Source: Luteococcus sp. H101 (GTDB lineage: Bacteria > Actinomycetota > Actinomycetes > Propionibacteriales > Propionibacteriaceae). Taken from it: a stretch of 60,601 bases of DNA. The notes below the pieces were generated by a model. The model did no database searches and had not been told where the DNA came from. It saw only the letters and a program-made list of their open reading frames with translations. The DNA is taken from assembly GCF_038433155.1 (NCBI RefSeq), contig NZ_JBCDMW010000005.1:1-60601 (forward strand), read 5' to 3'. Position 1 is the first letter of the stretch, and each line of letters starts with the position of its first letter. A program made the position numbers and the translations under genes. Shown piece by piece: positions 2,655-22,084 of the stretch.

Positions 2655-2655
2655 C

Positions 2656-3465
2656 GTGGCGGTGATCACCCTGGCCAGCGTCGCTGGGGCGCCCGGGGTC
2701 AGCACCAGTGCGTTGGGCCTGGCGCTGGCCTGGCCGCGCGACGTGCTGCTGGCCGACTGTGACCGGGATCCCGCGCAGACCATCCCGGCCGGCTACCTGC
2801 GGGGGACGGACCTGGGCGGCCGAGGCCTGGGCCAGCTGGCGGCGGTGCACCGGGAACACCGGCGCCTGGCCGAGGAGATCTGGCTGCAGACTGTGCGCCT
2901 GGACGGCGGGGAGCGGGACCGTCGCTTCCTGCCCGGCTTCACCCATCCCGGGGCGGTGGGCCTGTTCGGGCCCATCTGGCAGGAGCTGGCGGACTCCTTC
3001 GTCGCGCTGGGGGCCAGCGGAACCGACGTGTTGGTGGACGCCGGCCGGGTGGGGCGCGATGGCCTGCCCGGCCCGCTGCTGATGACCAGCGACGTGCTGT
3101 TGGTGACGGTGCGCAGTTCCCTGCGGGCGCTGGCCGCCCTGCGGCTGCACCTGCCGGCGGTGCAGGCCCAGCTGGAGGCCCTGGCCGCGCACGCCGAGCT
3201 GGCACTGCTGGTGGTGGGGCCCGGCAAGCCCTACAGCGGCGCCGAGATCGAGAAGCAGTTTGGTCTGCCGGCGCGCTACTCGATTGCCTGGGAACCCAAG
3301 CAGGCAAGGGTCTTCAGCGATGGCGCGAAGCCCTCACGCGGTCTGGCGGGCGGATCCCTGGTCCGCAGCTACCGGGCGTGCTCCTCCCGGCTGGCCGAAT
3401 CCGTGCAGCGTCGCACCGAGGTGGTGGCCGGGACCCGGCCCAGCGTCGAGTGGGGTGCGCGATGA
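2656..3465 (+). CDS. tadZ: CpaE/TadZ-like ParA-family protein with degenerate Walker A (helicase/secretion-neighbourhood CpaE-like)
   Basis: VAVITLASVAGAPGVSTSALGLALAW in place of a canonical P-loop. It sits between cpaB and tadA. GTG start at 2656 (alternative GTG at 2647), overlapping the cpaB stop. Confidence 0.55.
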   Translation: MAVITLASVAGAPGVSTSALGLALAWPRDVLLADCDRDPAQTIPAGYLRGTDLGGRGLGQLAAVHREHRRLAEEIWLQTVRLDGGERDRRFLPGFTHPGAVGLFGPIWQELADSFVALGASGTDVLVDAGRVGRDGLPGPLLMTSDVLLVTVRSSLRALAALRLHLPAVQAQLEALAAHAELALLVVGPGKPYSGAEIEKQFGLPARYSIAWEPKQARVFSDGAKPSRGLAGGSLVRSYRACSSRLAESVQRRTEVVAGTRPSVEWGAR

Positions 3466-4641: not shown

Positions 4642-5430
4642 ATGCCAGCTCCCCCGTGGTTCGTGGACCAGCTCGGCTGGAAAGCCTTGGAGGCCAAGAG
4701 CCAACCCATGTCGCAGGACCTCTTCGGAATCCCAAGGGCCCCCAACCTTGCCGACGTCGCCAACAAGCCGAGCCTCCGGCTCGGGGCGGCCATGCTCGAG
4801 TCGCTATCGGTCAGGAGGGGCGCATCCCCTGTTTCCTCCGGAAAGCCTGGCACGTTGCTGGAGGAGGGAATCCGGTCAGACCTCGCTGAGACCCTCGCGG
4901 CGCTGGAGCCCAGTATCGCTTGGGGTGTCACGCGCGGCGGAACCGTGGAGCGTTTCGCCCAGTACCAGCACCTAGCCAAGCTGAAGGACTTGCTCGCGGC
5001 ATACCCTGACATTCCCATGGCGATGGGCAAGGACTACCAGATCAAGACTGACGTGATGGTCTCCGTGCCGGACAAGACCGAGCCTGGCCAAGACATCCTT
5101 CACGCGGCCGTGTCGTCGAAGTTCACGATCCGGTCTGACCGGGTCCAGAACATCCGATTCGAGTTTGCCACGCTGCTGCGCACTAGGCAGGGGCGGGCAC
5201 CGCACTTGGTGGTCGTGACGGGCGAGCCATTGCCCAGCCGTGTCGCAGCCATTGCGCAGGGCACGGGTGAGGTCGATGCTGTGTACCACCTGCTCTTCGA
5301 TGAAGTCTCGGATGCCGTCACGGCCCTCTTCCCGGCTGGGGCGAGCCAGCGCCGGACGTGGGAAGAACTGGTAGAGCGCCAGCGGGTGCGGCCCTACGAG
5401 GAGCTGGTCCTAGCCTTGGTGAGTTCATGA
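4642..5430 (+). CDS. type II restriction endonuclease, NgoMIV/Cfr10I family (predicted GCCGGC-type)
   Basis: The segment HAAVSSKFTIRSDRVQNIRFEF...RAPHLVVVTGEPLPSRVAAIAQGTGEVDAVYH closely resembles my recollection of the NgoMIV catalytic region (SxK...E with downstream PH-VVVT-EP-PSR-I-LGTGE-D-VYH). An upstream PD is present (VMVSVPD). RBS gtgagg lies before the ATG. Confidence 0.55.
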   Translation: MPAPPWFVDQLGWKALEAKSQPMSQDLFGIPRAPNLADVANKPSLRLGAAMLESLSVRRGASPVSSGKPGTLLEEGIRSDLAETLAALEPSIAWGVTRGGTVERFAQYQHLAKLKDLLAAYPDIPMAMGKDYQIKTDVMVSVPDKTEPGQDILHAAVSSKFTIRSDRVQNIRFEFATLLRTRQGRAPHLVVVTGEPLPSRVAAIAQGTGEVDAVYHLLFDEVSDAVTALFPAGASQRRTWEELVERQRVRPYEELVLALVSS

Positions 5431-6149
5431 CCGGTCAGTTGTTCGAACCCACGGCCGGGGGTGGCCTTGGCTTCTGCCACGACGCTATGCCCGGGTTGCT
5501 CCCAGCGGGCTACCACGGACCATTGGTGGTCGCCATCGACTCCAATGTACTGATCGACCTGTACGAGTTTGGCACCCGGATGGTGGAGGACAGCCTTCCC
5601 GAGCCCCCAGAGGTTCCGGCCTCGAGGGCAGGGGAGCTGGAGGCGATCGCCAGCATTCTGGACTTGTGGCTCATCAGGGACATCCGGCTGGTCACGACGC
5701 CACGGATCCTGACTGACGCCAAAGCCAATCCCTCGCGGCTTGCCCGCCGGAGGCAGGACATCGAGCACCTGGCTCGTGCACTGGCCTTCCAGCTCGAGGA
5801 CTGGGAGGAGCCGTTTCCGCTAAAGGCGCCGGAGCCCTCGTCGCCGCCGACTGTGATTGGGGCCCGGGGCGAGGCTGACCGGCAGCTCGTGGAAGAGGCA
5901 GCTGCGATCGGGGCTCACGTTTTCCTGACTCAGGACAAGCGCTTGCGGCGACCTGTTTCCATCCCAGATGCCGCGACCCAGGTCCTCTACCCGAGCGAGC
6001 TGGCGGCCACGCTGGCGGGGGCGCGCGTCACCCACTTCTTCGGCGGCATCTGCGGTGGCAGTGACTGCCCCTACCCGGATTTCAGCATGCCCGCCCCGGA
6101 CCTGGGCCGGTACGTGCTGCTGGGCCTGTTTGCGCCAGCGCCTGCGTGA
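5427..6149 (+). CDS. PIN-domain nuclease-like protein, translationally coupled (ATGA overlap) to the restriction endonuclease gene
   Basis: VVAIDSNVLIDLYEF (PIN beta1 with Asp), later acidic residues, and the C-terminal AAIGAHVFLTQDKRL PIN-like motif. Confidence 0.45.
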   Translation: MTGQLFEPTAGGGLGFCHDAMPGLLPAGYHGPLVVAIDSNVLIDLYEFGTRMVEDSLPEPPEVPASRAGELEAIASILDLWLIRDIRLVTTPRILTDAKANPSRLARRRQDIEHLARALAFQLEDWEEPFPLKAPEPSSPPTVIGARGEADRQLVEEAAAIGAHVFLTQDKRLRRPVSIPDAATQVLYPSELAATLAGARVTHFFGGICGGSDCPYPDFSMPAPDLGRYVLLGLFAPAPA

Positions 6150-6531
6150 TACGGGCAGCGCATGCCATGGCATCCTGCTTCACCTCGAAGTCCCAGAACC
6201 GTAGGACGGTCCACCCCATGGCTTCCAGCGCGCCGTTCGCTGCCTTGTCACGCTCCTGGTTCCTGGCGATCTTCGCCTTCCAGTAGTCGCTGGCCGCCTC
6301 CGGGTGCCAGTGGTCCGGGTGGCCATGCCAGTACGCGCCGTCAACGAACACGGCCACCTTTCGCCCCACGAAGGCGATGTCGGGCCGTCCTGGCAGGTCC
6401 TTGCGGTGAAGGCGGTAGCCCGGTTGCCCTGAGGCGCGAAGCGCTGCCCGCAGGGCCAGTTCCGGCTTGGTGTTGCTGGACCTGATGGCCCTCATGACGC
6501 GTGAGCGTCCTTCGGGGCTGAGGTGGTCCAT
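6082..6531 (-). CDS. vsr: very-short-patch repair endonuclease Vsr
   Basis: SRVMRAIRSSNTKPE, LPGRPDIAFV, VFVDGAYWHGH, YWKAKIARNQERD and MGWTVLRFWD all align with E. coli Vsr motifs. The start is 7 nt downstream of the dcm stop. Confidence 0.8.
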   Translation of the reverse strand: MDHLSPEGRSRVMRAIRSSNTKPELALRAALRASGQPGYRLHRKDLPGRPDIAFVGRKVAVFVDGAYWHGHPDHWHPEAASDYWKAKIARNQERDKAANGALEAMGWTVLRFWDFEVKQDAMACAARITQALAQTGPAARTGPGPGRAC

Positions 6532-6538
6532 GGCGGGC

Positions 6539-7537
6539 CTACTGGAACAGCAGCTCGGGTTCCTGGGCCCGGGCGGAGTTCTGGGGAGGTTCCGTGTCGA
6601 GGCGCGCGTTCAGGGCCTTGGCGATCTGGGTGCCGACAGCTGCGGCGACAGGCGGCGGGAAGGCATTGCCCACCTGGCGCCACGCGGCAGTCTTCGGGCC
6701 CGAGAACTTCCAGTCGGGCGGGAACCCCTGCACCAGGGCGCCCATCTCGACGGTCAGGCGCGGCGTGCCGGTGAAACCCGCCTCGGGTGCCGCCGGGGCG
6801 ATCGTCTTGCCGTCGACGCCCAGCTGGGCCCATGCCTTGCGGGCCCGGGTGGGCCCAAGGTCGGGGCCGCCATGCTTGTGCGAGCCCCCGACAAGGGTCG
6901 GGGCGATGGCGTTGGCCTGTCGGGCCCACTCGCTGGCACCCTCCCAGCCGTTGCTGGACATCAGGTCGAACAGGAGCTGCCCGACCGTGCGGGCTGGCTT
7001 CCGGGCAGGCTCGGGCCACGTGAAGTAGGCGTCCCACGGGTCCTTGATGGCGACCATGACGACGCGGGGGCGCAGTTGGGAGACGCCGAAGTCGCTGGCG
7101 TGCAGCAGCTTCCAGTGGGGGCGGAACCCCATGCTGGCCAGCTCGCGGGAGACCTCGTCGCGGAACCCCTCGAACTGCGGGTCCAGCAGCCCCCGGACGT
7201 TCTCGATCATCACGGCGCGGGGATCGGCCTGGCGGATCAGCTCCAGGGCGCGCGGGAACAGGTTGCGCTCGTCGTCGGCGCCCAGTTGCTTGCCAGCCTT
7301 CGAGAACGGGGGGCATGGCACGCCGCCTGCGAACAGGTCGACCTTGCCCTTGAAGGACTGCGCCGACCACTCGTTGAGGTCCATCTGGAGGGTGTTCCAC
7401 TGGGGCCGGTTCTGCCGCAGCGTCTCGCAGGCGCGTGCGTCCATCTCGACGCACGCGAGGTGCTTGAACCCCGCCGCCTCAAGGCCAAGCGCCTGGCCCC
7501 CTGCTCCGGCGCACACCTCTACGGACGTGAGTGGCAT
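6539..7537 (-). CDS. DNA (cytosine-5)-methyltransferase
   Basis: Motif I VCAGAGGQALG, motif IV GGVPCPPFS, motif VI IENVRGLL and motif X QVGNAFPPPVA. GGAGG RBS upstream of ATG 7537. Confidence 0.85.
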   Translation of the reverse strand: MPLTSVEVCAGAGGQALGLEAAGFKHLACVEMDARACETLRQNRPQWNTLQMDLNEWSAQSFKGKVDLFAGGVPCPPFSKAGKQLGADDERNLFPRALELIRQADPRAVMIENVRGLLDPQFEGFRDEVSRELASMGFRPHWKLLHASDFGVSQLRPRVVMVAIKDPWDAYFTWPEPARKPARTVGQLLFDLMSSNGWEGASEWARQANAIAPTLVGGSHKHGGPDLGPTRARKAWAQLGVDGKTIAPAAPEAGFTGTPRLTVEMGALVQGFPPDWKFSGPKTAAWRQVGNAFPPPVAAAVGTQIAKALNARLDTEPPQNSARAQEPELLFQ

Positions 7538-7565
7538 GGTCGTCCTCCTCTGTTTGGCTCATTCT

Positions 7566-7732
7566 TGCACAATGCCGGCGTGCTGGAAGCAATAATAGCA
7601 GATACTTCCTATTATTTCTAGGGTGCGCGGACAGTGAACGGCCTAGCCAATCGGGAAATTCTGGGTTCTTTCTTGGATTTCTCTGCAGGCCTCGACGGGA
7701 GCCCGGAAAGACTAAAAAATGCCGGCGCGGGA
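7566..7732. promoter_or_regulatory. AT-rich intergenic region between the methyltransferase gene and the upstream nuclease gene; two copies of AATGCCGGCG (containing GCCGGC) and an 8-bp inverted repeat AATAATAG/CTATTATT
   Basis: Direct repeats at 7571-7580 and 7718-7727, and the IR at ~7590-7615, were read from the sequence. AT content is unusually high for this genome. Confidence 0.35.
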
Positions 7733-8656
7733 TCAGAACAGCAAGCCGTGCGGGGCGGGCCTGGCAGGCTCGTCCCTGGGCAGGCTCAGCCAGTCGCCCG
7801 GCCCCAGCGCGAACCCGGCGACGGCGGCCCGCTCTCGGTCCTCCAGCCACTTGCCGCACAGGAGGTCGGCATTGTGCTCCGCGAGCACGAGGGCCTTGAC
7901 CTCCCGGGCCCGGCGCAGCGGGTCGTCACGGTTGGCGCAGACAGTCAGGATGGCATGCCTGGGAATCACGGTCCCGGGCAGGAACCCGAACAGCCGCGTG
8001 AGGCGGCGTGCCTGGCCGGTGCCCGGCTCGAAGACCAGGTCACGCTCGTGCGGCTCGAGGTCCCGCAAGGGGTTGTGCGGCAGGGCCGACCAGGGGATGA
8101 CAATCATGCCGAACCGGTCCAGGGCTGCTGCGCGGATCGTTGTCTTCCGGTCCTGGTTGCGGCCGGCGTTCAGCCACGCGTGGTGGGTGCGCATGAGCTG
8201 CACCTGGAACCGGTCATGGCGGAAGTCGATGCGGACCAGCAGGCACAGCTGGCACTGGGCTTCCTGCGGAATCGTCCACGTGCGTGCGACCGTGACCTTG
8301 ATGTCGACCGGGACGCCCTCGATCCACGTGTCCAGCGGGCCTCTCTTCTCGAGCCCCAGCGCGGACAGGATCCGGTACTGCGCCTTCGTGCCGACCGAGC
8401 TGCGCTCGTCGGAGTCGACCTCCGGGTCGTTCAGGTCGAAGCGGCCGGTGTGGGCGCCGTCCAGCACGTACTGGATGCTGTCGTCGAGCGCAGCGGTCAT
8501 CGCGACCGGGACTGCAGGCCGGGACAGCCACGCCCGCACGGCCTGCAGCTGCGCGTCATCCGCCGGGTCCTCGAGGACATGGCCATCGGGGACGGTCCCC
8601 CGCCGGGCATCTGGCTGGCACCAGTCGCCCGGCTGGGCAATCGCGTCCGACGTCAT
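7733..8656 (-). CDS. PD-(D/E)XK nuclease, possibly NaeI-like type II restriction endonuclease
   Basis: GPLDTWIEGVPVDIKVT gives D-x9-D-x-K, the spacing reported for the NaeI active site. The gene is on the same strand as, and immediately upstream of, the C5-MTase. Start is ATG 8656; a GTG at 8662 is also possible. Confidence 0.35.
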   Translation of the reverse strand: MTSDAIAQPGDWCQPDARRGTVPDGHVLEDPADDAQLQAVRAWLSRPAVPVAMTAALDDSIQYVLDGAHTGRFDLNDPEVDSDERSSVGTKAQYRILSALGLEKRGPLDTWIEGVPVDIKVTVARTWTIPQEAQCQLCLLVRIDFRHDRFQVQLMRTHHAWLNAGRNQDRKTTIRAAALDRFGMIVIPWSALPHNPLRDLEPHERDLVFEPGTGQARRLTRLFGFLPGTVIPRHAILTVCANRDDPLRRAREVKALVLAEHNADLLCGKWLEDRERAAVAGFALGPGDWLSLPRDEPARPAPHGLLF

Positions 8657-8808
8657 GCGCACACGCTAGCGCCGGCACCGCGGCCTAGCCGAGCGGGGTC
8701 CGTTGCTGGAACCAAAGACTTGGCTGTGAAAACGGCACGTTGCCATCGCTGATCATCTAGGGTGCAAGTAGAGTGCAACTTTCCGCTTGTCGATGGTAAG
8801 GATCTGCG

Positions 8809-9636
8809 ATGAACAAGCCCTTTGGGCTTTCGGGCGAGCACTACACGCTGGATCGCCCTCCGGCAGTGTTCAGCGTCTTTGAGGTGCGGTACGGCGAGGG
8901 GCGCGAACACATCAACCTCCAGGCGGGTTACGACCTTCAGGAGTTCATGTCCAAAACCTTTCCTGGCGGAACGTGGAAGGTCGAGAAGTCCACGTGGCAG
9001 GAGGCCCAGGTGGAGCTGACGCCCCAAGGGCCCCGCCAGCAGTCCTACTCGGAGGTCGGCGTCCGCCTCACAAGCTCGGAACTCTCCTGCGAGATGACAT
9101 TCTTCCCTTCTAGGGCGGCGGTTCAGGTGAGCCAGTACACGCGCTGGAGTACGTCACTGAAACCACTGGTGAGCGCGGCCGTGCTGGCTGTCGAACAGCT
9201 GCTCAAGCCAGTGGGACGGGATCGTGTGGGGTTGCGATACGTGAACAACTTCCAGGACCAGAAGGCCGTGACACCCGGCTTCTGGGACGGCAAGATCGAG
9301 CCGTCCCTGCTAGGACCAGTAGCTGGCGGCCCGTTCACGGGCCAGCTGCGTGATGCGCAGAGCCAGCTGGTTCTCGACTTGGGAGGTGGCGCCGGCGCAG
9401 TACTACGGCACGGGCTGCTCGCCTCACCTGCCGCGCCTGCAAGCGTGGGCTACCTGCTGGACATCGACACTTTTGACGAGCACAGCGCTAGGTTCGATGC
9501 GGAGGATGTCATCACGCGGGCGGAAGTGCTCAACCGCAACGCAGCCGAACTGTTCCAGAGGAGCCTGACCGAGCGTTTCTCGGTGGCACTCGGCAAGCGC
9601 AAGGTTGAATCGCAGGGGAATGGAGACATGCAATGA
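8809..9636 (+). CDS. TIGR04255-like family protein (uncharacterised)
   Basis: N-terminal PAVFSVFEVRYGEG and the later RVGLRYVNNF match the remembered TIGR04255 signature. Good RBS (aagga). It is the first gene of a three-gene overlapping operon. Confidence 0.45.
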   Translation: MNKPFGLSGEHYTLDRPPAVFSVFEVRYGEGREHINLQAGYDLQEFMSKTFPGGTWKVEKSTWQEAQVELTPQGPRQQSYSEVGVRLTSSELSCEMTFFPSRAAVQVSQYTRWSTSLKPLVSAAVLAVEQLLKPVGRDRVGLRYVNNFQDQKAVTPGFWDGKIEPSLLGPVAGGPFTGQLRDAQSQLVLDLGGGAGAVLRHGLLASPAAPASVGYLLDIDTFDEHSARFDAEDVITRAEVLNRNAAELFQRSLTERFSVALGKRKVESQGNGDMQ

Positions 9637-10313
9637 CCGCTGCAGTGCTGACCCGTACACGAACGGGTAGTTTCCATCCTGACCCCTATGCCGGGTGTGG
9701 GGCCCTGGTCTCCCACACGGGAATCCGCTACGAGTCCGTCCCCGATGTCAATTTCAGCGGCCGGCTCTTGCGCATGGACTTGATCTTCTCCACAACGGGA
9801 GAGACCTGGGTGGGTGAAGCGCCGCCGTCGGAGATCGGCGAGGATGAGGCAATCACGGTCCCTGCCGTGGTCGCCATTGAAGAGGCCGCGCAAGCCCTGG
9901 GGTTGCCCGTCAAGTACCTCCGCGAGGGTGCAGGGATCAGTCCTCGCACGTTCCATCACTGGAAGAAGACGCCGGCTGTGCAGCCGCGTGTATCGAGCCA
10001 AGCCGATGTGTGGGCCCTCATGGACACGCTCGAGACCCTGAAGGATCTCGTGGACGGGGACCTCGGGCTCTGGCTGAGGGCCGACACGGCCCGAATGCGA
10101 TTGCTGCGCGGAGGGGACTTGATGGGCCTCGTACGCGAGGCAACTCGCCGCGAGAGCTTGCGCAGCAACCGGTCTCACTTTGAGGAAGCGATGGCGGTTG
10201 GCTTCTTCGTCGAGCCCAAGGAAGCACCTGGCCCCGTTGGGCCCCGCCCTGTGGTTCGCGCCCGGAGGGCCGCCAGGGGTCGCGTCGTCCCAAGGGAAGG
10301 ACAGGGGGCGTGA
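9633..10313 (+). CDS. hypothetical protein, coupled (ATGA overlap) to the TIGR04255-like gene
   Basis: ORF with ggaga RBS and a 4-nt start/stop overlap with the preceding gene. No domain recognised. Confidence 0.4.
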   Translation: MTAAVLTRTRTGSFHPDPYAGCGALVSHTGIRYESVPDVNFSGRLLRMDLIFSTTGETWVGEAPPSEIGEDEAITVPAVVAIEEAAQALGLPVKYLREGAGISPRTFHHWKKTPAVQPRVSSQADVWALMDTLETLKDLVDGDLGLWLRADTARMRLLRGGDLMGLVREATRRESLRSNRSHFEEAMAVGFFVEPKEAPGPVGPRPVVRARRAARGRVVPREGQGA

Positions 10314-11230
10314 GCCAAGGACACTTTCCCATCGACCGGCTCCATCCCACATTTGATGACTGGACGGACGACCAGGCGCAGGCCCTGGACAAGTGGTATC
10401 AGGGAGCTCTGTGTCCCAGCATTCCCTTGGGGTGGTACGCCCCCAGCGGACTCGATGGAATCACTTCCGTCGAGGGGTTCGACGCGTCGGATTGGCTGTC
10501 GCCTGAGGGAGTGACGGAGGTTCCCGCTGGGGCGATCGTTGTTTCGCAGACGTGTGACATTGTCCTGTCTGGGCCGGGGCGGAGGCATCCCTTCGTCCAA
10601 GTGAGTCCTGTGTGGGTCATGCCGCGAAAGGACCTGAGCCAGCTGGCCGACCTCCAGCGCTGGCGAGTCGTCGACAAGGTGTTGCTCGATCCTCCCGCGG
10701 AAGGGTTCGCCCTGCTTGGCGCCGAACTGGATGACCTTGAATCGGTCGCGGCAATCGCCGACCTGAGGATCTCGATGCCCGTCAGCAAGTCTGTGTTGCT
10801 GGCGCACCAGCCCGTCAAGGCCTTTTGTGGTGATGACGCCGCGCTGAAATTCGCCGGCCACCTGGCAACCAAAGCCGCCCGTCCAGCACTGCCCGACGTC
10901 GTTGCCGTGATGGGGCGCGTCTTGGACGAGGAGATCCGAGGCCTATCCGGTGAGAGGTGGATGAGCAGTGTCGAATCAGTCCGTGTCACCTGCAGCCCGA
11001 GCCGCCAGCATGCCGAGAAGATTCGGCTGCTCGTCCTCCACACCGGCAGCGGCCAGCTACCCGGCGAGGTCTATAGGCATTGGGACAGGCTCTGGAAGCG
11101 CGTCCGTAAGAACAAGCAGGTGAGGGCCTTCCCGGCAATCACCCTGGGAAAGCCGGAGCACCTTCGAGCCCGGGACCTGCTCGCCACGTCCTATCGGGAT
11201 AGCGATGAGCTTCGCCTCCAGCACCTGTAG
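10310..11230 (+). CDS. hypothetical protein, third gene of the operon (GTGA overlap)
   Basis: GTG start overlaps the previous stop. 306 aa with no recognised domain. Confidence 0.4.
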   Translation: MSQGHFPIDRLHPTFDDWTDDQAQALDKWYQGALCPSIPLGWYAPSGLDGITSVEGFDASDWLSPEGVTEVPAGAIVVSQTCDIVLSGPGRRHPFVQVSPVWVMPRKDLSQLADLQRWRVVDKVLLDPPAEGFALLGAELDDLESVAAIADLRISMPVSKSVLLAHQPVKAFCGDDAALKFAGHLATKAARPALPDVVAVMGRVLDEEIRGLSGERWMSSVESVRVTCSPSRQHAEKIRLLVLHTGSGQLPGEVYRHWDRLWKRVRKNKQVRAFPAITLGKPEHLRARDLLATSYRDSDELRLQHL

Positions 11231-11309
11231 CGAGACCGTGCAGTCGAGTGCGCTAGGCACGTTCACGCAATGCCCATCCCTGTCGCCGTTCGTGCTCTAG
11301 GCTTCAGAC

Positions 11310-12557
11310 ATGAGCGACCTAGAAGATATCGGCTTCGACCACGATCAAGTTCAGGAGGAAGGCGAACCCTCCAGTAGCTCATGGCTTGACGAGCCTTCCG
11401 AGCCGGACGATGAGGTACGCGTCGACGAGTATGACATCGTCTCATCCCCCAATGACTGGAACTGCCTGACGATCACGTCCTTCATCGACTCTGGTGCCGT
11501 CAAGATTCCCAACTTCCAGAGAAACTACGTCTGGGACCAGAAGCGGGCATCCAAACTCATCGAGTCACTCCTTTTGGGCCTGCCGATCCCGCAGGTATTC
11601 CTCTACGAGGAGGCCCGGAACTCGTTCCTGGTCATTGATGGCCAGCAGCGCCTGCTCACGCTGTACTTCTACATGAAGGGCAGGTTCCCGAAGACATCTA
11701 GCCGGGCTGCAGTGCGGCATCTGCTCCAAGGGGGTCAGGGGATCGACCAGGCAAAACTTGCAGACGATGACCTCTTCGAGGATTTCAAGCTGAAGTTGCC
11801 GAGCCGGACTGACGGGTCAAGGAACAAGTTCCACGGGAAGAAGTACTTGGGGCTCGAGGACTACAAGTCGACGCTGGACCTTCGCACCATCCGCAACATC
11901 GTCGTCAAGCAGACCACGCCAGAGGGCGATGCTGCGATGTTCGAGATCTTCAACCGCCTGAACTCGCAAGGCGTGAACCTGACCCCCCAAGAGATTCGAG
12001 CAAGCCTCTTCCACTCCAAGCTGATGCAATCGGTCATCGGCATGAACGAAGATCATGGCTGGCGAACCGTCTTGGGGCTGAAGACGCCCGACCCGCGCAT
12101 GAAGGACACGGAAGTACTCCTGCGCTCCTTGGCCCTGGCCCGGGATCTCAACTCCTACTCGGGCACGATGGCTAACTTCATCAACCGGTTCGCGGGTAGC
12201 GCCAAGCGCTACAGTGACGCTCAGGCAGACGATGCAATCGCGGACCTGCGCTCCTTTATTGGTGCCGTAGCAGCAGTCGGCCATCCGGAAGCACCGGAGG
12301 CTTTCCGACGTGGTGGAAAGTTCAGCGGCATCCTCTTCGAGTCAGTCTTTGCGGCTTGGGTTCAGCTCGGAAAGCAAGCAGATGGGGAACAAGTCGTCCA
12401 AGTAGCCAAGCAGGTACGAGAACACAACACGTTTGCGGACAGCCTGCAGGAGGGGTCGACGAAGTCGGTCAATGTCAAGAAGCGGATCAATCTTGCCAAG
12501 GCGTACTTCCAGGGGGAGGAACCCGAAGAGGACAAGAACCCGGAGGCTGAGGAGTGA
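11310..12557 (+). CDS. DUF262 (ParB/Srx-like, DGQQR motif) domain protein, GmrSD N-terminal-domain-like
   Basis: FQRNYVWDQKRASKLIESLLLGLPIPQVFLYE...LVIDGQQRLLTL is the canonical DUF262 signature. There is no DUF1524/HNH C-terminal part. Local GC is visibly lower than the host average. Confidence 0.75.
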   Translation: MSDLEDIGFDHDQVQEEGEPSSSSWLDEPSEPDDEVRVDEYDIVSSPNDWNCLTITSFIDSGAVKIPNFQRNYVWDQKRASKLIESLLLGLPIPQVFLYEEARNSFLVIDGQQRLLTLYFYMKGRFPKTSSRAAVRHLLQGGQGIDQAKLADDDLFEDFKLKLPSRTDGSRNKFHGKKYLGLEDYKSTLDLRTIRNIVVKQTTPEGDAAMFEIFNRLNSQGVNLTPQEIRASLFHSKLMQSVIGMNEDHGWRTVLGLKTPDPRMKDTEVLLRSLALARDLNSYSGTMANFINRFAGSAKRYSDAQADDAIADLRSFIGAVAAVGHPEAPEAFRRGGKFSGILFESVFAAWVQLGKQADGEQVVQVAKQVREHNTFADSLQEGSTKSVNVKKRINLAKAYFQGEEPEEDKNPEAEE

Positions 12558-13090
12558 GTGCAGAGGGGACGCCGGCGGCAGTGGCGTCGCTTAGCGATGA
12601 CATCGCTTACATGGAAGTGCTCTTGTCCGCGGACCCCTCGGCGTTGGCAGCCTTGGGCAGGATCGCCCCCAAGGTGCTCCTCATCGCTGCCGCCAGTGCC
12701 CTGGAGGACCAAGTCAAGGAGGAACTGCAGCGACTTGCCCGGGCTCATGGTCACGCTGAGTTGGCCGAGTGCGTGACCCGGGGAATCCTGGCGAGGGGCT
12801 ATCACACGTTGTTCGAGTGGGATAAGACGAATGCCAACAGGTTCTTTGCCCTGTTTGGTCCGGACGCCAAGGAACGGTGCCAAGCGGCTGTGGGAGCAGA
12901 TGAGGCCCTCGATCGCTCGGTGCGGGCCTTTCTTGAGCTCGGCAGGTTGCGTAACAACCTGGTGCACAACAACTACGTGACGTTCGAGGTGCCAAAGACC
13001 GTGCTGGACATCGTGGAACTCTACGAGGCAGCACGAGTCTTCCCCACGAGATTCGGTGAACTCCTTTTCCTGAATCCCCAAGCAGCATGA
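12554..13090 (+). CDS. HEPN-like protein (Rx4H motif RLRNNLVH), overlapping the DUF262 gene stop
   Basis: GTG start overlaps the upstream TGA. The C-terminal LELGRLRNNLVHNNY fits the HEPN R-x4-6-H motif. Confidence 0.5.
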   Translation: MSAEGTPAAVASLSDDIAYMEVLLSADPSALAALGRIAPKVLLIAAASALEDQVKEELQRLARAHGHAELAECVTRGILARGYHTLFEWDKTNANRFFALFGPDAKERCQAAVGADEALDRSVRAFLELGRLRNNLVHNNYVTFEVPKTVLDIVELYEAARVFPTRFGELLFLNPQAA

Positions 13091-13111
13091 CCCCAGAGGC
13101 ACAATGGGGAC

Positions 13112-13336
13112 ATGGGCCACCTGATCGACTTCCCCGGACACCTTCAGGAGCCCTTGGGCATCTTCCGGGCGGTGTCGTCCCGCGATGGTGTGGCATGCGA
13201 GCGGGACGGCCAGGTCTACGTGGCCATGAACATGCTCGGTTCCAGCAGCGGCCGGGCAGTGGCAGAAGTCCAGTTCAGCGACGGCGTGTGGATCCTCGCG
13301 GACCCGGAACACGACCTGTTCCCGTTGGATCCGTAG
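13112..13336 (+). CDS. small hypothetical protein
   Basis: 74-aa ORF in an otherwise empty gap. No domain. Confidence 0.2.
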   Translation: MGHLIDFPGHLQEPLGIFRAVSSRDGVACERDGQVYVAMNMLGSSSGRAVAEVQFSDGVWILADPEHDLFPLDP

Positions 13337-13367
13337 AACTGTCAGTGCCGTCCGCCACGATGGCGCC

Positions 13368-13628
13368 ATGTCTTCCCGCATTCGCTCCGACTTCGGCACG
13401 CTGGCTGACCGTGCCCGCGGGATGCAGGAGACCAAGGCCACGGTCCCGGGCCATGCCTGGGCGAAGTTCGGTGATGGCTGGCGGCCGGTGCTGCTGGTGC
13501 GCTGGATCCGGAACCTCGACGGCACCTGGGCCGGTGAGGTCGCGGCTGTCGACGACACCGGCCAGGCCGGTCTGTTCGTCATCGCCGGCAGCCTGCTGCG
13601 CGCAGATGCGCCTGTGGGCGAACAGTGA
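13368..13628 (+). CDS. small hypothetical protein
   Basis: 86-aa ORF. A short GC hairpin (ccggg-ggaa-cccgg, ~13667-13682) follows it, before the convergent gene. Confidence 0.2.
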   Translation: MSSRIRSDFGTLADRARGMQETKATVPGHAWAKFGDGWRPVLLVRWIRNLDGTWAGEVAAVDDTGQAGLFVIAGSLLRADAPVGEQ

Positions 13629-13715
13629 GCTTCGGAATGACGCTCCCAGAACATGACGAGCGGCAGCCCGGGGGAACCCGGACCGCCGCTCGTGAGATGC
13701 GGTGTGCTCAGTGCG

Positions 13716-14885
13716 TCACTTCTTCTTGGTGAACTTGGCGAAGTCATCCTTCTCGTACAGCCCGGCGGCGCGGGCGGCGGTCACGTAGGTGTACTGGCGC
13801 TCGCCCACCTGGGAAGCGGGGTCGGGTCGCTCTCCGCCGCCGGCCGTGTCCACGTTCAGTTCCCAGCCGTAGCGATCAGCAAGCGCGAGGGTCGTTGTGG
13901 TGGCACGAGGCAGATGCTGGATGGTGCCCACGAGCAGGACGTCGTGGATGTCGTACTGCTGGAAGATCCGCACCATGCCCATGGCGTTGCCAACGGTGTC
14001 CCGCGCACGGTCGTCCTTGATGATGCGACCCGCATTGACACCTTGCTCGACGAGCCACTTCTCCATGACGTCAGCCTCTGCGTAGGGCGTCTTGACAGCA
14101 GCGCCCGACAGGACGATCCACGCGTCCGGGTAACGCTCAGCCATCTCCTTGGTCTTCTCAAGCCGTGTGAGCAGGCCAGCCGACGGGGTGCCGTCGCTCT
14201 TGGGGGACTGGCCAAAGACCGCAATGGCTTCCGGCTTCATGTCGGTCTGCGGCTGGGAGCCGTAGTTGGCGTACATGGTGGTCTCCGCGAAACGCAGGAA
14301 GGACTTCATCTCCTTGGCTGCCTTCGGGGAAGTCTTGGCCAGGTGCGCCATGCGGCACCGGTAGTCGGGCCGGTTGCCCAAGTAGTACTGGATCATGCTC
14401 GTCGTGGCGAGGGCATGGACATCCTTGGGCTGACGACGCAACACCTGGTCGAGCTGGGAAAGGGCCTCGCTGTAGGTGGCGTTGACCTGGTACGCGTCGG
14501 CCTGCAGGCGGTAGGTGTCCAGGAAGTCAGGCTTGGACTTCGCCTTCGTATCGAGGCTCGAGTACATGGCGTTCCATTGCCAGCGTCGGTACTGGATCAC
14601 CTCGGCGTGAAGGAACGGGTCACGGACGTAGGACCGGGCGTAGTCGGGCTGCTGACCGTCCATTGCCTCGCCTCGTCCATCTGCCTTGGCCTTGGGGGCA
14701 GGCAGCGGGTCTTGCAGCTGGATCTTGCACGAGGCGTTGACCTTCACATTGGTCGGTTCCTTCGCCACCTTCGGCAAGACGGGAGCGGGACGATCCTTCG
14801 CAGCCATGACCGGCGGCGTGGAGAGCAGTGGCGCGGCAACGGCGCCAACCAGCACGGTGGAGGCGAGGGTTCGCTTCAAACGCAT
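13716..14885 (-). CDS. secreted DUF218 (YdcF/SanA-like) domain protein
   Basis: Signal peptide MRLKRTLASTVLVGAVAAPLLSTPPVMAA. DUF218-like core AWIVLSGAAV...GRIIKDDRARDTVGNA...LLVGTIQHLPRA. Start at ATG 14885 with a gagagga RBS. Confidence 0.6.
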   Translation of the reverse strand: MRLKRTLASTVLVGAVAAPLLSTPPVMAAKDRPAPVLPKVAKEPTNVKVNASCKIQLQDPLPAPKAKADGRGEAMDGQQPDYARSYVRDPFLHAEVIQYRRWQWNAMYSSLDTKAKSKPDFLDTYRLQADAYQVNATYSEALSQLDQVLRRQPKDVHALATTSMIQYYLGNRPDYRCRMAHLAKTSPKAAKEMKSFLRFAETTMYANYGSQPQTDMKPEAIAVFGQSPKSDGTPSAGLLTRLEKTKEMAERYPDAWIVLSGAAVKTPYAEADVMEKWLVEQGVNAGRIIKDDRARDTVGNAMGMVRIFQQYDIHDVLLVGTIQHLPRATTTTLALADRYGWELNVDTAGGGERPDPASQVGERQYTYVTAARAAGLYEKDDFAKFTKKK

Positions 14886-15018
14886 GGGGGTTCCTCTCGA
14901 AGTCAAGTGTGGGGACTTCTCCCACCCTCGTACTTCGGCATGAACTGCCACCCAACCGTGGAGCAACATGCGGCGAACTTCACGCTCCCCAGTACGCCGC
15001 CGGGGGCGACCAAGCCCG

Positions 15019-15204
15019 TCAGTCCAAACCTCTGGCCGACCGTGCGTGCACCCGCACGCTCCAACCCTGGGGCGGCCTGGCTTCCGGGCGCTTGGATGGT
15101 GGTTTTGGGATGGTCGGGACCTCTGCTCCCATGGCGCGCAGGATCGCAACAGCCTTCTGACGTTCTGCCAGCGTGTACGCCGGCGTGGTGTCCTTGGCGG
15201 TCAT
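15019..15204 (-). CDS. small hypothetical protein coupled to the upstream HTH gene
   Basis: 62 aa (MTAKDTTPAYTLAERQKAVAILRAMG...). GGAGG RBS, and ATGA overlap with the stop of the 15201..15902 gene. Confidence 0.3.
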   Translation of the reverse strand: MTAKDTTPAYTLAERQKAVAILRAMGAEVPTIPKPPSKRPEARPPQGWSVRVHARSARGLD

Positions 15205-15902
15205 GGCGTGCCTCCTTGGTGCGCTGCCCTCAGGATCTGGGGCCAGGTGCCGAACCTCTTGCGCACCAGCGTGCCCGACGGGGCACCGGCCTGGGCGGAA
15301 AGCCACGATTCCAGGCCAGTGATGGTCCACGGACCGGGCGTCTCCAAGTAGCGGCAAACCCACCGGGCGAGGTCCCCGTCGCTGAACTGGCGTGTCCGGC
15401 CGCCGGACCGAACGGTCACGCCCACGGATTGCAAGGCTGCTGCCCAGGTGCCGTGCCGGCGCAGGACGGTGGCCAGGGAAGGCCAGTCCCGGCCTGCCCG
15501 CAGTGCCGTGAACTGGGCCATGCTGGGCGTGTCCGTGAGAGCCACGAACTCACGCAAGGCGTCCTCGATGGCCTCGTCCGGGGTGGCCTTGGCCCGCCGT
15601 GGTGGCCGGTGCAGCGCTGCCCGGTCCCCGAGGATCGATCGAAGCTCGCTGGTGTTGCAGCCCAGGCCCGACTGGTTAAGCGGGACACCGGGGTTGGCAG
15701 CGGACCAGGTCAACGCGCGGCGTTCGAGATCCTCACGGGCTTGCTGGATGCGCCGTTCCCGTTCGGCGCGCAGGGCGGGCGTGAGGGCCAGGATGTCGTA
15801 GACGCGGGTTGGTGACAGGCGGTGCTGCCGCGCGATGCGGGTGACGCGCTCGCCCGACAGCCACGCCTCGAGGATGGCACGGTCCCGGGCGGCACTGGTC
15901 AC
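15201..15902 (-). CDS. helix-turn-helix DNA-binding protein
   Basis: N-terminal ILEAWLSGERVTRIARQHRLSPTRVYDIL HTH. GTG start. Lies downstream of the FRG gene on the same strand. Confidence 0.45.
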   Translation of the reverse strand: MTSAARDRAILEAWLSGERVTRIARQHRLSPTRVYDILALTPALRAERERRIQQAREDLERRALTWSAANPGVPLNQSGLGCNTSELRSILGDRAALHRPPRRAKATPDEAIEDALREFVALTDTPSMAQFTALRAGRDWPSLATVLRRHGTWAAALQSVGVTVRSGGRTRQFSDGDLARWVCRYLETPGPWTITGLESWLSAQAGAPSGTLVRKRFGTWPQILRAAHQGGTP

Positions 15903-15930: not shown

Positions 15931-16926
15931 TTAGTTGGTGATCATGCCGGCGTAGTCCGTGTCTGCGACCGCTGGGATCGCCTCGGCGATGGTTTCTGGT
16001 TGCTGCCAGTCAGGAGTGAAATCCACGGTGACATCCCTTTGAGCCAAGGCCAGGGCGAAGCCCGCGAGATCCGGGTACAAGGTCTGGTGCGACTTGCCCA
16101 TCGCCTTCAGCACCTCCAGCAGTCGCCCCTTCCATGCTGCGGGAATGATGGCGGCGGCGAAGCGCGGGGCACTCTCGTCGAGGTTGACCGACGCATCGTG
16201 GAGGAGGGCGTTGAGGTCCGCTGGTTTCGCATGGAGGCCGAAGGCCAGGCAATCCGTGACCGCAGCCCATGGTGCCGCGGGCACCAGTCCGTCAGGCAGC
16301 ATCCCGATGAGGAAGGCTCCCTGCTGGGCTGTCATGCGCGCGTCGCGGATCGTGGGGACCAGAACGACAGGATGGGTGTCGGCCATCTCCAAAATCCGCT
16401 TCAACGCATTGCGGAGAGGATCTCCCACATCGTCCCAGGTCCCCCACGGGCGCTCATGGGTCTCCTTGCTGTACTCAGCGTCGACAGCGAACAGGATGCC
16501 GTCCCGGTCGGGAAGATCACTGCAGGCGAACCACAAGGCCGTGAACGGGTCCCGGCTGACGTCGATGAGGCGGGTGGGCACGCCGTGGTGCTGCATCTGG
16601 GCCAGGAGTTGCAGGTCCGGGATGTGGCTCGCGCCCATCGTCCCCAGCCCCCAGTTGCGTGCTTGCTCGATCAATGCGCGCTCAGCCTTCTCCAGCGGGA
16701 TCGTGTCCGCCAGGCCGTTCGTTCGCAGGTGTCGCTGCAGGCTGGATTCCAGCTTCCAGGCAGCGTCGGCCTGTCCACGCCAGACGTAGCCGCCAACAGC
16801 GGGACCGAGCTGGGTCAGCCGCATCGTGAAAGCCAATATCTGGTCGATCGATTCGGGCTGCACCGCCCAGCCGTCACGAACCCACTGCGCTGGCTGCAGC
16901 CCGTGAGCTGTCGGGGGCATGTTCAT
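15931..16926 (-). CDS. FRG-domain protein
   Basis: YVWRGQADAAWKLESSLQR and QHHGVPTRLIDVSRDPFTALWFAC correspond to the FRG domain signature. Confidence 0.65.
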   Translation of the reverse strand: MNMPPTAHGLQPAQWVRDGWAVQPESIDQILAFTMRLTQLGPAVGGYVWRGQADAAWKLESSLQRHLRTNGLADTIPLEKAERALIEQARNWGLGTMGASHIPDLQLLAQMQHHGVPTRLIDVSRDPFTALWFACSDLPDRDGILFAVDAEYSKETHERPWGTWDDVGDPLRNALKRILEMADTHPVVLVPTIRDARMTAQQGAFLIGMLPDGLVPAAPWAAVTDCLAFGLHAKPADLNALLHDASVNLDESAPRFAAAIIPAAWKGRLLEVLKAMGKSHQTLYPDLAGFALALAQRDVTVDFTPDWQQPETIAEAIPAVADTDYAGMITN

Positions 16927-20052: not shown

Positions 20053-20562
20053 ATGACCAGCAACACGACCGGTTGGGGCAAGAACACCCAACCCCACTCC
20101 CGTGGTCACTTGGACCACATTGAGCGTGAACTGGGCCTGGGGGTTGCCAATACGGTGCACCGCCCTGACGGCCTCGCGTACCAGGCCCGGCGGGAGGGAG
20201 ACCATCCCGTTCCCTCCGTGGCCGAACTGGCGGCACGCATCGACGGGGCCCTCAACAACCTGAACAACCTGTGGCTCGTGGCCGACGAGCTGCAGAGCCA
20301 GTTCCTGGAGGTCCAGGACGTTGTCAACGGCTTCTTGAAGCACGGCGCACCGCCCCCTCCGGAGGTCACGGTGTTCACCGTCAAGCAGGCCTGCACCCAT
20401 CTGGGAGTGAGCAGGACGACACTCACCAGGCTGCGCAAGCAAGGGCTGCCGTGCTTCACGCTGGGGGAGGGCACCGCTGCGCGCCCGCGCTTCCGGCGAG
20501 ACGAGCTGGACGCCTGGATCGCCAAGCACCAGCCGCGTCGCACGATCGGTGGCCAGCGATGA
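20053..20562 (+). CDS. xis: excisionase/MerR-type HTH protein (Xis-like)
   Basis: C-terminal FTVKQACTHLGVSRTTLTRLRKQGLPCFTLGEGTAARPRFRRDELDAWI. Its stop overlaps (ATGA) the integrase start. Confidence 0.5.
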   Translation: MTSNTTGWGKNTQPHSRGHLDHIERELGLGVANTVHRPDGLAYQARREGDHPVPSVAELAARIDGALNNLNNLWLVADELQSQFLEVQDVVNGFLKHGAPPPPEVTVFTVKQACTHLGVSRTTLTRLRKQGLPCFTLGEGTAARPRFRRDELDAWIAKHQPRRTIGGQR

Positions 20563-21990: not shown

Positions 21991-22012
21991 GCGAAGAGCA
22001 TCCACACCAAAA

Positions 22013-22072: not shown

Positions 22073-22084
22073 CATGGAGGATCA

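Follow-up and report, generated by a model that had tools for sequence, protein, structure and literature searches.

Genes A, B and C of the Luteococcus sp. H101 window (the whole stretch of DNA that was analysed, 60,601 nucleotides) look like an undescribed three-part toxin-antitoxin, possibly anti-phage, system. We consider it probable that they form a self-contained, horizontally mobile tripartite module of the type II-like kind, in which C would be the toxin, B the antitoxin and repressor, and A a third subunit. The grounds for this reading are the conservation of the triad, its translational coupling, its mobility, purifying selection, the homology of B to MbcA, the predicted fold of C, and the replacement of C by known toxins in related loci.

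Table 1. Positions of the triad genes and of the upstream repeat in the window
Feature	Position	Strand	Description
Gene A	8809..9636	+	275 aa, ATG start; TIGR04255-family protein, first gene of the triad
Gene B	9633..10313	+	226 aa, ATG start; candidate antitoxin and autorepressor
Gene C	10310..11230	+	306 aa, GTG start; candidate toxin/effector
Tandem direct repeat TAGGGTGCAA-g-TAGAGTGCAA	8758..8778	+	From repeat search; spacing 11 nt, 31-51 nt upstream of the A start

Organization and conservation of the operon

A sequence-only reading of this DNA had noted three open reading frames with 4-nt start/stop overlaps, and both the coordinates and the junctions were borne out: A and B share ATGA (9633-9636), B and C share GTGA (10310-10313), and the three genes form one operon with translational coupling. 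Each of the three starts is preceded, at 5-7 nt, by a purine-rich Shine-Dalgarno-like stretch, and a scan of positions 8500-11500 for sigma-70 promoters and terminators gave none above shuffled expectation.

The triad is present in more than 100 loci of Actinomycetota, Pseudomonadota and other phyla, and its hosts include Mycolicibacterium, Arthrobacter and Rhizobium. With C as the anchor, 81 of 84 loci have the order A-B-C, and with A as the anchor, 38 of 44. The 4-nt overlap between A and B, kept in 54/76 loci, is the best-conserved junction, that between B and C being kept in 29/76. All three genes are under purifying selection (dN/dS 0.05-0.23 per gene), and the divergence of A tracks that of B and C (r=0.9). 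Given this co-conservation in the same order and these dN/dS values, A, B and C are not chance open reading frames of a GC-rich genome. A conserved fourth gene beside the triad was sought among the neighbours and rejected.

These data bear on the alternative that B and C are a plain two-gene toxin-antitoxin pair with an unrelated gene upstream, or that the operon has a non-toxic regulatory or housekeeping role. Such an interpretation could draw on some proteobacterial MAGs, in which the triad is co-oriented inside the obg-proB-proA-nadD-rsfS-rlmH housekeeping cluster (nadD / triad / rsfS-rlmH), and on the lack of a sequence-detectable toxin domain in C. However, the association of A with B-C holds across phyla, the best-conserved overlap is the one that involves A, A co-diverges with both partners, and it is retained when the toxin is swapped. 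A housekeeping role is further argued against by the patchy distribution of the triad, its variable flanks, its plasmid copies and its near-identical copies in different genera, and we regard this alternative as highly improbable.

No family of PADLOC (PADLOC-DB v2.0.0, 2023) matched A, B or C at E<=1, and no matching triad system was found in PADLOC (2023), Pfam, the PDB or the literature, including that on tripartite, RES, Xre and NetFlax topics. The earlier description of the module as uncharacterised is in line with this, and with the finding that neither A nor C has a Pfam family and that TIGR04255 is mentioned in no paper.

Gene A belongs to the TIGR04255 family

Protein A matches TIGR04255 with 82.4 bits (E=4.3e-23; residues 14-260 on profile positions 2-250 of 252), against a curated NCBIfam cutoff of 30 bits; it is thus a member with near full-length coverage, as are all 66 of the 66 triad-linked A homologues. 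The assignment had originally been made from two signature motifs, and both are present in A (PAVFSVFEVRY, residues 18-28; RVGLRYVNNF, residues 139-148). The family is described as a 'sporadically distributed protein'. A has no Pfam match, sequence and profile searches of the PDB returned no relative for it even at E<=10, and a single-sequence AF2 model (pLDDT 35) was not usable. An internal repeat was ruled out, the hhalign comparison of the N-terminal with the C-terminal half being negative.

The invariant columns of A (alignment A4) are Y110, R139, G141, R143, D218 and D220. The invariant R-x-G-x-R-Y and D-x-D motifs look more like a ligand-binding or active site than a chaperone surface. 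A does not match a SecB-like chaperone of the TAC type: the lack of any Pfam match excludes a SecB match, and A has no PDB relative and no likeness to a chaperone family. Of the three genes, A shows the highest conservation (dN/dS 0.05-0.15); this counts against the module reading, since one would not usually expect it of a protein that senses fast-evolving phage proteins.

Gene B belongs to the Xre/MbcA/ParS antitoxin lineage

B consists of a variable N-terminal extension (~1-75), an Xre-type HTH (~80-112), an MbcA/ParS-like helical region (~113-170) and an Arg/Pro-rich tail. The window protein matches PF20432 (Xre-like-HTH) over residues 80-112 with 18.5 bits (E=0.0024), which is under the cutoff of 25.8, and it had no match in the PDB when searched alone. 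At the family level (61 members), PF20432 is detected in 17/61 at E<=0.01 and HTH_3 or HTH_23 in 23-24/61, and the B-family profile aligns with MbcA (6fkg_C; E=1.7e-6), profile positions 108-193 on residues 18-107 of 115, as well as with a second Xre/MbcA/ParS antitoxin (8qnl_A; E=3.6e-4). The homology of the B family to a solved member of this group therefore spans the HTH and the toxin-binding helices, and on this profile evidence B belongs to the Xre/MbcA/ParS lineage. The previous view that B and C lack a recognisable domain must be revised accordingly for B, and also for C, which has a predicted MazF/CcdB-type fold.

B is about twice as long as MbcA (115 aa), its N- and C-terminal extensions are poorly conserved, and it is the fastest-evolving of the three genes. 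Two points on B count against the module reading: the window protein stays under the PF20432 cutoff, and in loci L051 and L052 the middle gene is short and lacks the HTH core.

The tandem repeat upstream of A (Table 1) is a candidate operator, to which the HTH protein B may bind, or else part of a promoter. Tandem 9-mers (<=1 mismatch) are located upstream of A in 26/52 non-redundant loci, compared with 10.4 +/- 2.9 in shuffles that preserve mononucleotide composition only, and 15 of the 26 repeat-bearing loci have a spacing of 11-12 nt. The repeat cores differ by clade, being AGTGCA in actinobacterial and ACTTCACA in proteobacterial loci.

Gene C encodes a candidate toxin that is exchanged for known toxins

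For the N-terminal domain of C (~20-165; residues 39-72 form a disordered insert), a model of medium confidence (pLDDT 72, from an 8-sequence alignment) predicts a MazF/Kid/CcdB-like fold; a C-terminal alpha/beta domain (~175-305) follows. Conserved motifs are SQTCD (79-83), HPxVQVSP (93-100) and DLRISxPxxK (151-160), and the conserved residues are C82, D83, R153, K160, R191, R225 and Y295. At 50% identity, the C family has 1194 or more cluster representatives. Word-index homologue searches had under-sampled the families (8 matches for C, none but itself for B, 9 with the B profile); for C, the sampling was set right by an exhaustive profile search.

Two sequence-level assignments of C were rejected. 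One is MazF itself, since hhalign against E. coli MazF, Kid and B. subtilis EndoA gave a probability of 0.1%. The other is the RES domain expected from the family of B; the Pfam search, PemK_toxin and RES included, gave no match in any of the 77 members, and the predicted fold differs. In the window, the gene directly downstream of B does not encode a cognate RES toxin. Two observations on C weigh against the module reading: C matches no toxin family by sequence, its MazF-like fold coming from a medium-confidence model, and it is not a RES toxin, the normal partner of MbcA-type antitoxins.

In relatives of the triad found on three metagenomic contigs, which is also the extent of the swap evidence, A is kept and C is replaced by Fic/DOC or RES toxins; the only variant locus with RES (L128) has this domain in the third position (35.4 bits, cutoff 23.2). 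The lineage of B, the predicted fold of C and the presence of Fic or RES in the place of C together make a tripartite toxin-antitoxin-like module the best description. A is also found in other arrangements. One locus (L170) encodes, ahead of B-C, a 1266-aa SNF2 helicase with the A domain fused at its C-terminal end, and distant TIGR04255 genes head operons that end in a ResIII helicase-nuclease (L167, L169).

Mobility and gene neighbourhoods

As a discrete cassette of ~2.4-2.5 kb, the triad moves with plasmids and with islands that are inserted at tRNA or tmRNA genes. Full triads are present on mobilizable or conjugative plasmids, beside genes for MobC/relaxase, a T4SS coupling protein or an integrase. 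A segment of at least 14.4 kb that carries the triad and begins at a tRNA-Pro gene is 99.97-100% identical between several Mycolicibacterium species and Mycobacteroides franklinii. The commonest neighbours are Resolvase, Phage_integrase and rve. The plasmid triads were recovered with other A proteins as queries; tblastn of the window proteins against plasmids and phages gave no match for A and one for C (a Kocuria plasmid), and blastn of the window operon against plasmids gave none. Phage and viral collections contain almost no copies of the triad.

The plasmid copies, the near-identical segment shared between genera and the recombinase-rich surroundings would suit an addiction module of plasmids and integrative elements, in which A would be a SecB-like chaperone that stabilises or folds an extended B, so that B decays and C is released once the element is lost. 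The extensions of B relative to MbcA could be chaperone-addiction segments, and a constant A-B pair joined with variable toxins mirrors the TAC systems. We nevertheless find this explanation unlikely: A is unlike SecB or any chaperone family, its invariant residues resemble a ligand or active site, the gene order with A first differs from that of TAC, the B extensions are not conserved, and many triads are chromosomal without a mobile-element gene among their three nearest neighbours.

In the window, genes for a NaeI-like restriction endonuclease, a C5 methyltransferase, Vsr and an NgoMIV-like restriction endonuclease lie to the left of the triad, and GmrSD_N (DUF262) and HEPN to its right. 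The triad has a GCCGGC restriction-modification cluster on one side and the GmrSD_N/HEPN pair on the other, and lies within a low-GC island that bears an excisionase/integrase pair at 20.0-21.8 kb. These neighbours and the integrase agree with the mobile defence island proposed at the outset, for which no convincing pair of att-site direct repeats was found in positions 1-26000. This setting would fit a dedicated anti-phage abortive infection system, in which A would sense a phage protein, nucleic acid or nucleotide signal and remove B from C, and C would then shut down the infected cell. The toxin-antitoxin core of this alternative is common with the module reading, and defence would be the selected function. 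It is also consistent with an MmeI-type enzyme 1 kb downstream of the triad in one locus (L001), with type I or IIG restriction-modification, LmuA, DrmMI, mad2 and PDC candidates near others, and with the SNF2 fusion and the ResIII operons described above; MazF/ToxN-type and RES toxins, moreover, are known Abi effectors.

However, defence genes are a minority of the 150 nearest neighbours in 51 non-redundant loci, most of these neighbours being unrelated metabolic, regulatory or mobile-element genes, and some loci are in the nadD-rsfS context. The lack of PADLOC matches and the slow evolution of A also speak against dedicated abortive infection, which we hold to be rather unlikely; the near-absence from phage and viral collections is neutral in this respect. 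The original proposal of a candidate anti-phage system from its context fits the window island, which is rich in restriction and defence genes, but this context does not extend to the triad in general: the neighbourhood analysis confirmed that the three genes are co-conserved, and only a minority of loci adjoin defence genes, some lying in a housekeeping operon. As the defence-island context is not general, an anti-phage role of the triad stays at the level of a plausible hypothesis.

Proposed mechanism

In the tripartite toxin-antitoxin mechanism that we infer, the toxic role would fall to C, in which the predicted MazF/Kid/CcdB-type barrel is joined to the alpha/beta domain; the activity of C would most likely be that of an endoribonuclease, possibly through the conserved C82/D83, R153 and K160. 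The helical C-terminal half of B would serve to neutralise C, and the HTH of B would act on the tandem repeats ahead of A to repress the operon. A, whose translation is coupled to that of B, would be an obligatory third subunit and would govern if C is held inactive by B; it could be a sensor or a subunit that binds a trigger, or else an enzyme that acts on B or C. When control by A and B is lost or titrated, as may happen upon phage infection or loss of the mobile element, C would be freed and cause arrest or death of the cell.

A further-reaching proposal, which we put forward tentatively as possible though short of probable, is that TIGR04255 is an unrecognised sensor or enzymatic 'gatekeeper' of an MbcA-type antitoxin, and that the triad represents a new tripartite immune or toxin-antitoxin class with swappable effectors (MazF-fold, Fic, RES). 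If so, the helicase-fused and helicase-nuclease-linked TIGR04255 versions would be variants of the same logic, and R-x-G-x-R-Y and D-x-D of A would make up a site for ligand binding or catalysis, through which a signal of infection or stress leads to release of the toxin.

If the tripartite module reading is true, it would give a first functional context to TIGR04255, an orphan family of many phyla, and C would be a new and sizeable candidate toxin family. It would also mean that MbcA/ParS-type antitoxins are not confined to RES toxins, and that there is a three-component architecture whose control unit of two proteins stays constant while the toxins are interchangeable. As the triad is a small self-contained cassette in tractable genera, its function is directly testable.

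Comparison with known systems

Among the known systems closest to the triad are the RES-Xre type II systems (MbcT-MbcA of M. tuberculosis, ParST, NatRT). B aligns with MbcA over both the HTH-like and the toxin-binding helical halves, the antitoxin gene precedes the effector gene in both cases, and the L128 variant has RES in the third position. On the other hand, C does not have the RES/ART fold but a predicted MazF-like one, B is about twice the length of MbcA, and the triad has an obligatory TIGR04255 gene in first position, whereas the known RES-Xre systems are, to our knowledge, composed of two genes.

With respect to the CcdB/MazF fold superfamily (MazEF, Kid-Kis and CcdAB, and the type III toxins ToxIN, CptIN and AbiQ), no sequence-level relationship to C was found with Pfam or hhalign. 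C is nearly three times longer and has the extra C-terminal domain, its conserved residues are not the MazF catalytic set, and its partner is an Xre/MbcA-type protein instead of a MazE/AbrB-type or RNA antitoxin.

The three-gene operon itself is shared with tripartite toxin-antitoxin systems (HigB-HigA-SecB TAC, HipBST, paaR2-paaA2-parE2, omega-epsilon-zeta). TAC combines HigB, MqsR or HicA toxins with ChAD-bearing antitoxins and a chaperone of the SecB type, and the triad likewise joins a constant accessory protein and an extended antitoxin with different toxin families. However, A is unrelated to SecB, to HipB/HipS and to the omega/PaaR2 regulators, the HTH of the triad is in the middle protein and not in a separate regulator, and the gene order is another one.

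A single antitoxin-type module that is combined with unrelated toxins, as with the C family, Fic/DOC and RES here, is also seen with hyperpromiscuous antitoxin domains (Panacea/PanA; NetFlax, PMC10440598). NetFlax comprises two-gene systems, and the main text of that paper does not contain the terms tripartite, three-gene, third gene or tricistronic (PMC10440598); the constant unit of the triad is a pair, TIGR04255 plus the MbcA-like protein, and not a single antitoxin domain. Finally, A is a bona fide TIGR04255 protein like its triad-linked homologues, and what is new here is the genomic context of this family, namely as the first gene of toxin-bearing triads, in an SNF2 fusion and in helicase-nuclease operons.

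The three genes and their island

Genes A, B and C, which together form the triad, were recovered as the sequence-only reading had described them, namely as three open reading frames with 4-nt overlaps, reading ATGA at the A-B junction (9633-9636) and GTGA at the B-C junction (10310-10313). Each start is preceded by a purine-rich, Shine-Dalgarno-like stretch (AAGGA at 8798-8802 for A, GGAGA at 9622-9626 for B and AGGGGG at 10303-10308 for C). The GC content of the window ranges from 0.59 to 0.76, with clearly lower values at 9-15 kb (0.59-0.66) than elsewhere. Long antisense ORFs, expected at such a GC content, are also present across the triad, so that ORF length by itself is no proof; it is the comparative evidence, i.e. 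conservation across loci, which identifies the plus-strand genes as real.

The layout of the surroundings was compiled from the gene calls of the source contig with their Pfam labels (offset by +309 to window coordinates) and from our own scans. Identical proteins are recorded from unclassified Luteococcus (Propionibacteriaceae). The proposed setting, between an RM module and a DUF262/HEPN pair inside a mobile island, proved accurate for this window: REases, a methyltransferase, GmrSD_N, HEPN and an integrase are all present.

Features in the window and loci with a replaced third gene
Feature	Position	Strand	Remarks
Alanine dehydrogenase			left end of layout, before the SAF/CpaB-like genes
SAF/CpaB-like genes	about 1980-3465		left of island
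NgoMIV-like REase	4642-5430	plus
240-aa protein	5427-6149		weak PIN_3 match; between NgoMIV-like and NaeI-like genes
Vsr mismatch endonuclease	6082-6531	minus
C5 DNA methyltransferase	6539-7537	minus
NaeI-like REase	7733-8656	minus
Gene A	8809-9636	plus	275 aa, ATG start
Gene B	9633-10313	plus	226 aa, ATG start
Gene C	10310-11230	plus	306 aa, GTG start
GmrSD_N/DUF262	11310-12557		directly after the triad
RiboL-PSP-type HEPN gene	12554-13090		overlaps GmrSD_N/DUF262
DUF218 protein		minus	between HEPN and excisionase-like genes
HNH_repeat protein	15201-15902	minus	faint match
FRG-domain protein	15931-16926	minus
HTH_17 excisionase-like gene	20053-20562
Tyrosine integrase	20559-about 21803
P63C-domain protein	21986-23065
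T2SSF (TadB/TadC-like) genes	24961-26764		right of island
Third gene Fic/DOC	triad at L113:1346-3731		38.2 bits, cutoff 24
Third gene Fic/DOC	triad at L145:4938-7155		39.7 bits, cutoff 24
Third gene RES	triad at L128:136-2756		35.4 bits, cutoff 23.2

The low-GC, integrase-bearing island (~3.5-24 kb) has SAF/CpaB-like genes on its left and T2SSF genes on its right, so that a tad/Flp-pilus locus may have been its insertion site; searches for its att repeats and a tRNA gave no convincing repeats and no tRNA. The restriction cluster (4642-8656) has two endonuclease genes against a single C5 DNA methyltransferase gene, in addition to vsr; GCCGGC is the recognition site of both the NgoMIV and NaeI enzyme families. 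The GmrSD_N/DUF262 and HEPN genes, which overlap by 4 nt, start 79 nt 3' of C after a gap without a predicted terminator, and this pair is not kept beside the triad at other loci. A 720-aa plus-strand ORF (13653-15815) without a family match is probably spurious, since it overlaps the public minus-strand calls for the DUF218 and HNH_repeat genes.

The triad is conserved as a unit

A word-index search with C yielded only eight relatives. All four independent contigs inspected had the same three-gene layout (about 270, 235 and 290-385 aa), with true A and B homologues (28-42% identity) upstream of the C relatives and with differing flanks (integrases, a resolvase, a TrwC relaxase, an MmeI-type enzyme). 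With an exhaustive profile search, the C family grew to 1194 cluster representatives (clustering at 50% identity) at E<=1e-3, of which 196 also pass E<=1e-30. A scan guided by motifs, with each species represented by one genome, gave 75 loci, of which 38 belong to Actinomycetota (including Mycolicibacterium, Mycobacteroides, Arthrobacter, Blastococcus, Rhodococcus, Gordonia, Nocardia and Acidimicrobiia) and about 33 to Alpha-, Beta- and Gammaproteobacteria, with single loci in Myxococcales, Gemmatimonadota and a cyanobacterium. When the earlier loci were included, 81 of 84 had an A homologue on the same strand as C and 0.7-0.8 kb 5' of it; of the three exceptions, two are truncated by a contig end. 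An iterated model placed a B homologue between A and C in 76 of these 81. The 4-nt overlap recurs at 54 of 76 A-B junctions and 29 of 76 B-C junctions. In the reverse test, anchored on A through the pattern R[VIL]G[LVF]RY[VI][ND]R in metagenomes, 44 loci had 1.7 kb or more of downstream sequence, and B was present in 39 and C in 38 of them.

Among 52 non-redundant triads, the pairwise identities of A, B and C correlate (r about 0.9), and B is the most divergent (mean identity 19% vs 27-28% for A and C). The dN/dS values of non-saturated pairs were 0.05-0.15 for A, 0.06-0.21 for C and 0.13-0.22 for B, with one outlier of 0.48 for B in the closest pair. We consider the three-gene linkage, the translational coupling and the purifying selection on all three genes to be established. 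In view of the linkage statistics, it is improbable that the triad is a plain two-gene toxin-antitoxin (TA) system with a bystander beside it, or that it is a housekeeping operon.

Some loci have an altered triad. A frameshift divides C in Mycolicibacterium frederiksbergense IN53 (L045; 7995-8877), and in Blastococcus mobilis (L026; 7720-8708) the only C ORF called is shortened at its N-terminus, A and B being intact in both. In two sponge-associated MAGs (L051, L052), in which assembly errors are possible, the middle gene is short (143-148 aa) and has no HTH core.

Features of the three proteins and of the region upstream of A

Protein A matches TIGR04255, an uncharacterised family, over its full length (82.4 bits, cutoff 30; E=4e-23), which bears out the assignment made previously by motif, and so do all 66 triad-linked A proteins; Y110, R139, G141, R143, D218 and D220 are invariant. 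None of the three proteins had a match in PADLOC, nor A and C in Pfam. Protein B gave a sub-threshold Pfam match to an Xre-like HTH of antitoxins (PF20432, E=0.0024), and HTH_3, HTH_23 or Xre-like-HTH was matched in 17-24 of 61 B-family members. The B-family profile matches MbcA (6fkg_C), the antitoxin of the M. tuberculosis RES-Xre system MbcT-MbcA, at E=1.7e-6 over residues 18-107 of 115, covering both the HTH-like and the helical halves, and another Xre/MbcA/ParS antitoxin (8qnl_A) at E=3.6e-4. Compared with MbcA, B is longer at its N-terminus by ~75 poorly conserved residues and also has an Arg/Pro-rich tail.

No meaningful Pfam match was found in any of 77 sampled C-family members, in which C82, P100, K160 and L163 are invariant and Q80, T81, D83, P94, D151, L152, R153, P157, R191, R225 and Y295 are conserved in at least 90%. 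A relationship of C to MazF was considered and is unsupported at the sequence level. The homology of B to MbcA is established, and C is predicted to have a fold of the MazF/ToxN type.

A tandem direct repeat (TAGGGTGCAA/TAGAGTGCAA, 8758-8778) with 11-nt spacing lies 31-51 nt 5' of A. Similar tandem 9-mers precede A in 26 of 52 loci, compared with 10.4 +/- 2.9 in mononucleotide shuffles, a crude control; the spacing is 11-12 nt in fifteen of them, and repeat cores are common within clades (AGTGCA in actinobacterial, ACTTCACA in proteobacterial loci). These repeats would fit a putative operator for the HTH protein B. Scans of the region for sigma-70 promoters and terminators gave nothing useful.

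The third gene can be replaced by known toxins

In three A-anchored loci without C, A and B are followed by a gene with a known toxin domain, either Fic/DOC or RES; such replacement in the third slot is established. The B-like protein of L128 is longer than usual (379 aa, stop-to-stop ORF) and has a second HTH. Another A-anchored locus, L155, has a very divergent C. A and B thus stay constant, while the third position can be taken by different toxins, which is our strongest, albeit still indirect, argument for C as a toxin and B as its antitoxin.

In the best-supported model, which we consider reasonably likely, the triad is a tripartite type II-like TA module. C would be the toxin and most likely act as an RNase, B would be its antitoxin, of the MbcA type, as well as an autorepressor, and A would be an obligatory third subunit in control of the B-C switch; the toxicity of C, its neutralisation by B, the operator binding and any activity of A are what we infer.

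TIGR04255 also occurs in other arrangements. In L170 (1315-6893), the A domain sits at the C-terminus (260 residues, 997-1256) of a 1266-aa SNF2/Helicase_C protein (E=1e-30), whose gene shares a 4-nt overlap with that of a B homologue; next comes a C homologue, which has the motif LTSHDCDIV. Directly 5' of this fusion gene is a PhdYeFM-PIN pair. Distant TIGR04255 genes in L167 (2750-6963) and L169 (326-3315), 51% identical to each other, come first in a different operon, followed by genes for two small proteins (~190 aa and 127-147 aa) and then by the gene of a ResIII helicase, with an additional endonuclease domain (RE_endonuc) in L167. The 127-147-aa proteins are 27% identical and share a recurring SRAYYAA...(A/C)DY motif. 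TIGR04255 thus recurs at the head of conflict-type operons.

Mobility and genomic settings

At 51 non-redundant loci, the 150 genes nearest to the triad matched 168 different Pfam families, of which only Resolvase (4), Phage_integrase (3), rve (2), Recombinase (2) and a few regulators and oxidoreductases recur; among these neighbours there was no fourth conserved gene. Between the Mycolicibacterium locus L025 and L016 or L034 of the same genus, nucleotide similarity (79-83%) is confined to about 6350-8860, that is, to the three genes alone. Several Mycolicibacterium species and Mycobacteroides franklinii have in common a triad-bearing segment of at least 14.4 kb with 99.97-100% identity (L025:2250-16681, also L027-L033, L035 and L045). 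Its left edge is a tRNA-Pro(CGG) gene (L025:2279-2353), beyond which the chromosomal flank is ~80% identical, and this pattern points to a putative integrative element that is spreading recently. In Blastococcus (L013), a tmRNA gene precedes the triad. Complete triads, confirmed with our own HMMs for A, B and C, are also present on plasmids of Kocuria rosea (beside MobC and relaxase genes), Chroococcidiopsis thermalis (beside an integrase), Rhizobium etli, Sphingomonas paeninsulae and Paenarthrobacter ureafaciens (beside T4SS genes). We take the mobility of the cassette as established; it is also self-contained. One selected role, which we regard as possible but rather doubtful, is that of an addiction module for plasmids and integrative elements, in which A would act as a chaperone-like stabiliser.

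The setting is not always an island. MAGs of, or related to, Hyphomonadaceae carry the triad as an insertion between nadD and rsfS-rlmH and in the orientation of these genes (L087:9171-14122, also L088 and L171). L087 has, in addition, a duplicated rsfS-rlmH pair and a second, degenerate triad (A fragment 12485-12763, B 12718-13635, C fragment 13820-14122).

The triad had been proposed as a candidate defence system. PADLOC matches are a minority of triad neighbours (one type I RM set, a type IIG enzyme, LmuA, DrmMI, two mad2 and PDC candidates), and the triad is nearly absent from viral collections, with one locus in IMG/VR and none in GenBank phages. Abortive-infection defence as the selected role is a tentative proposal, to which we give slightly more credence than to addiction; the two roles are not exclusive.

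Comparison with known systems

The closest known system, through B, is RES-Xre (MbcTA, ParST, NatRT), from which the triad differs in that its candidate toxin, C, comes from a different, undescribed family and that a third gene is obligatory. C resembles the toxins MazF/Kid/CcdB and ToxN in predicted fold only. The architecture is like that of TAC and other tripartite TA systems, although the SecB of TAC is unrelated to A, and the toxin promiscuity is like that of Panacea/NetFlax, but NetFlax covers two-gene systems whereas the triad has three genes. No description of the triad was found in PADLOC (2023), Pfam, NCBIfam, PDB or the searchable literature. What is new relative to known TA systems is the third component, A, and the candidate toxin family, C.
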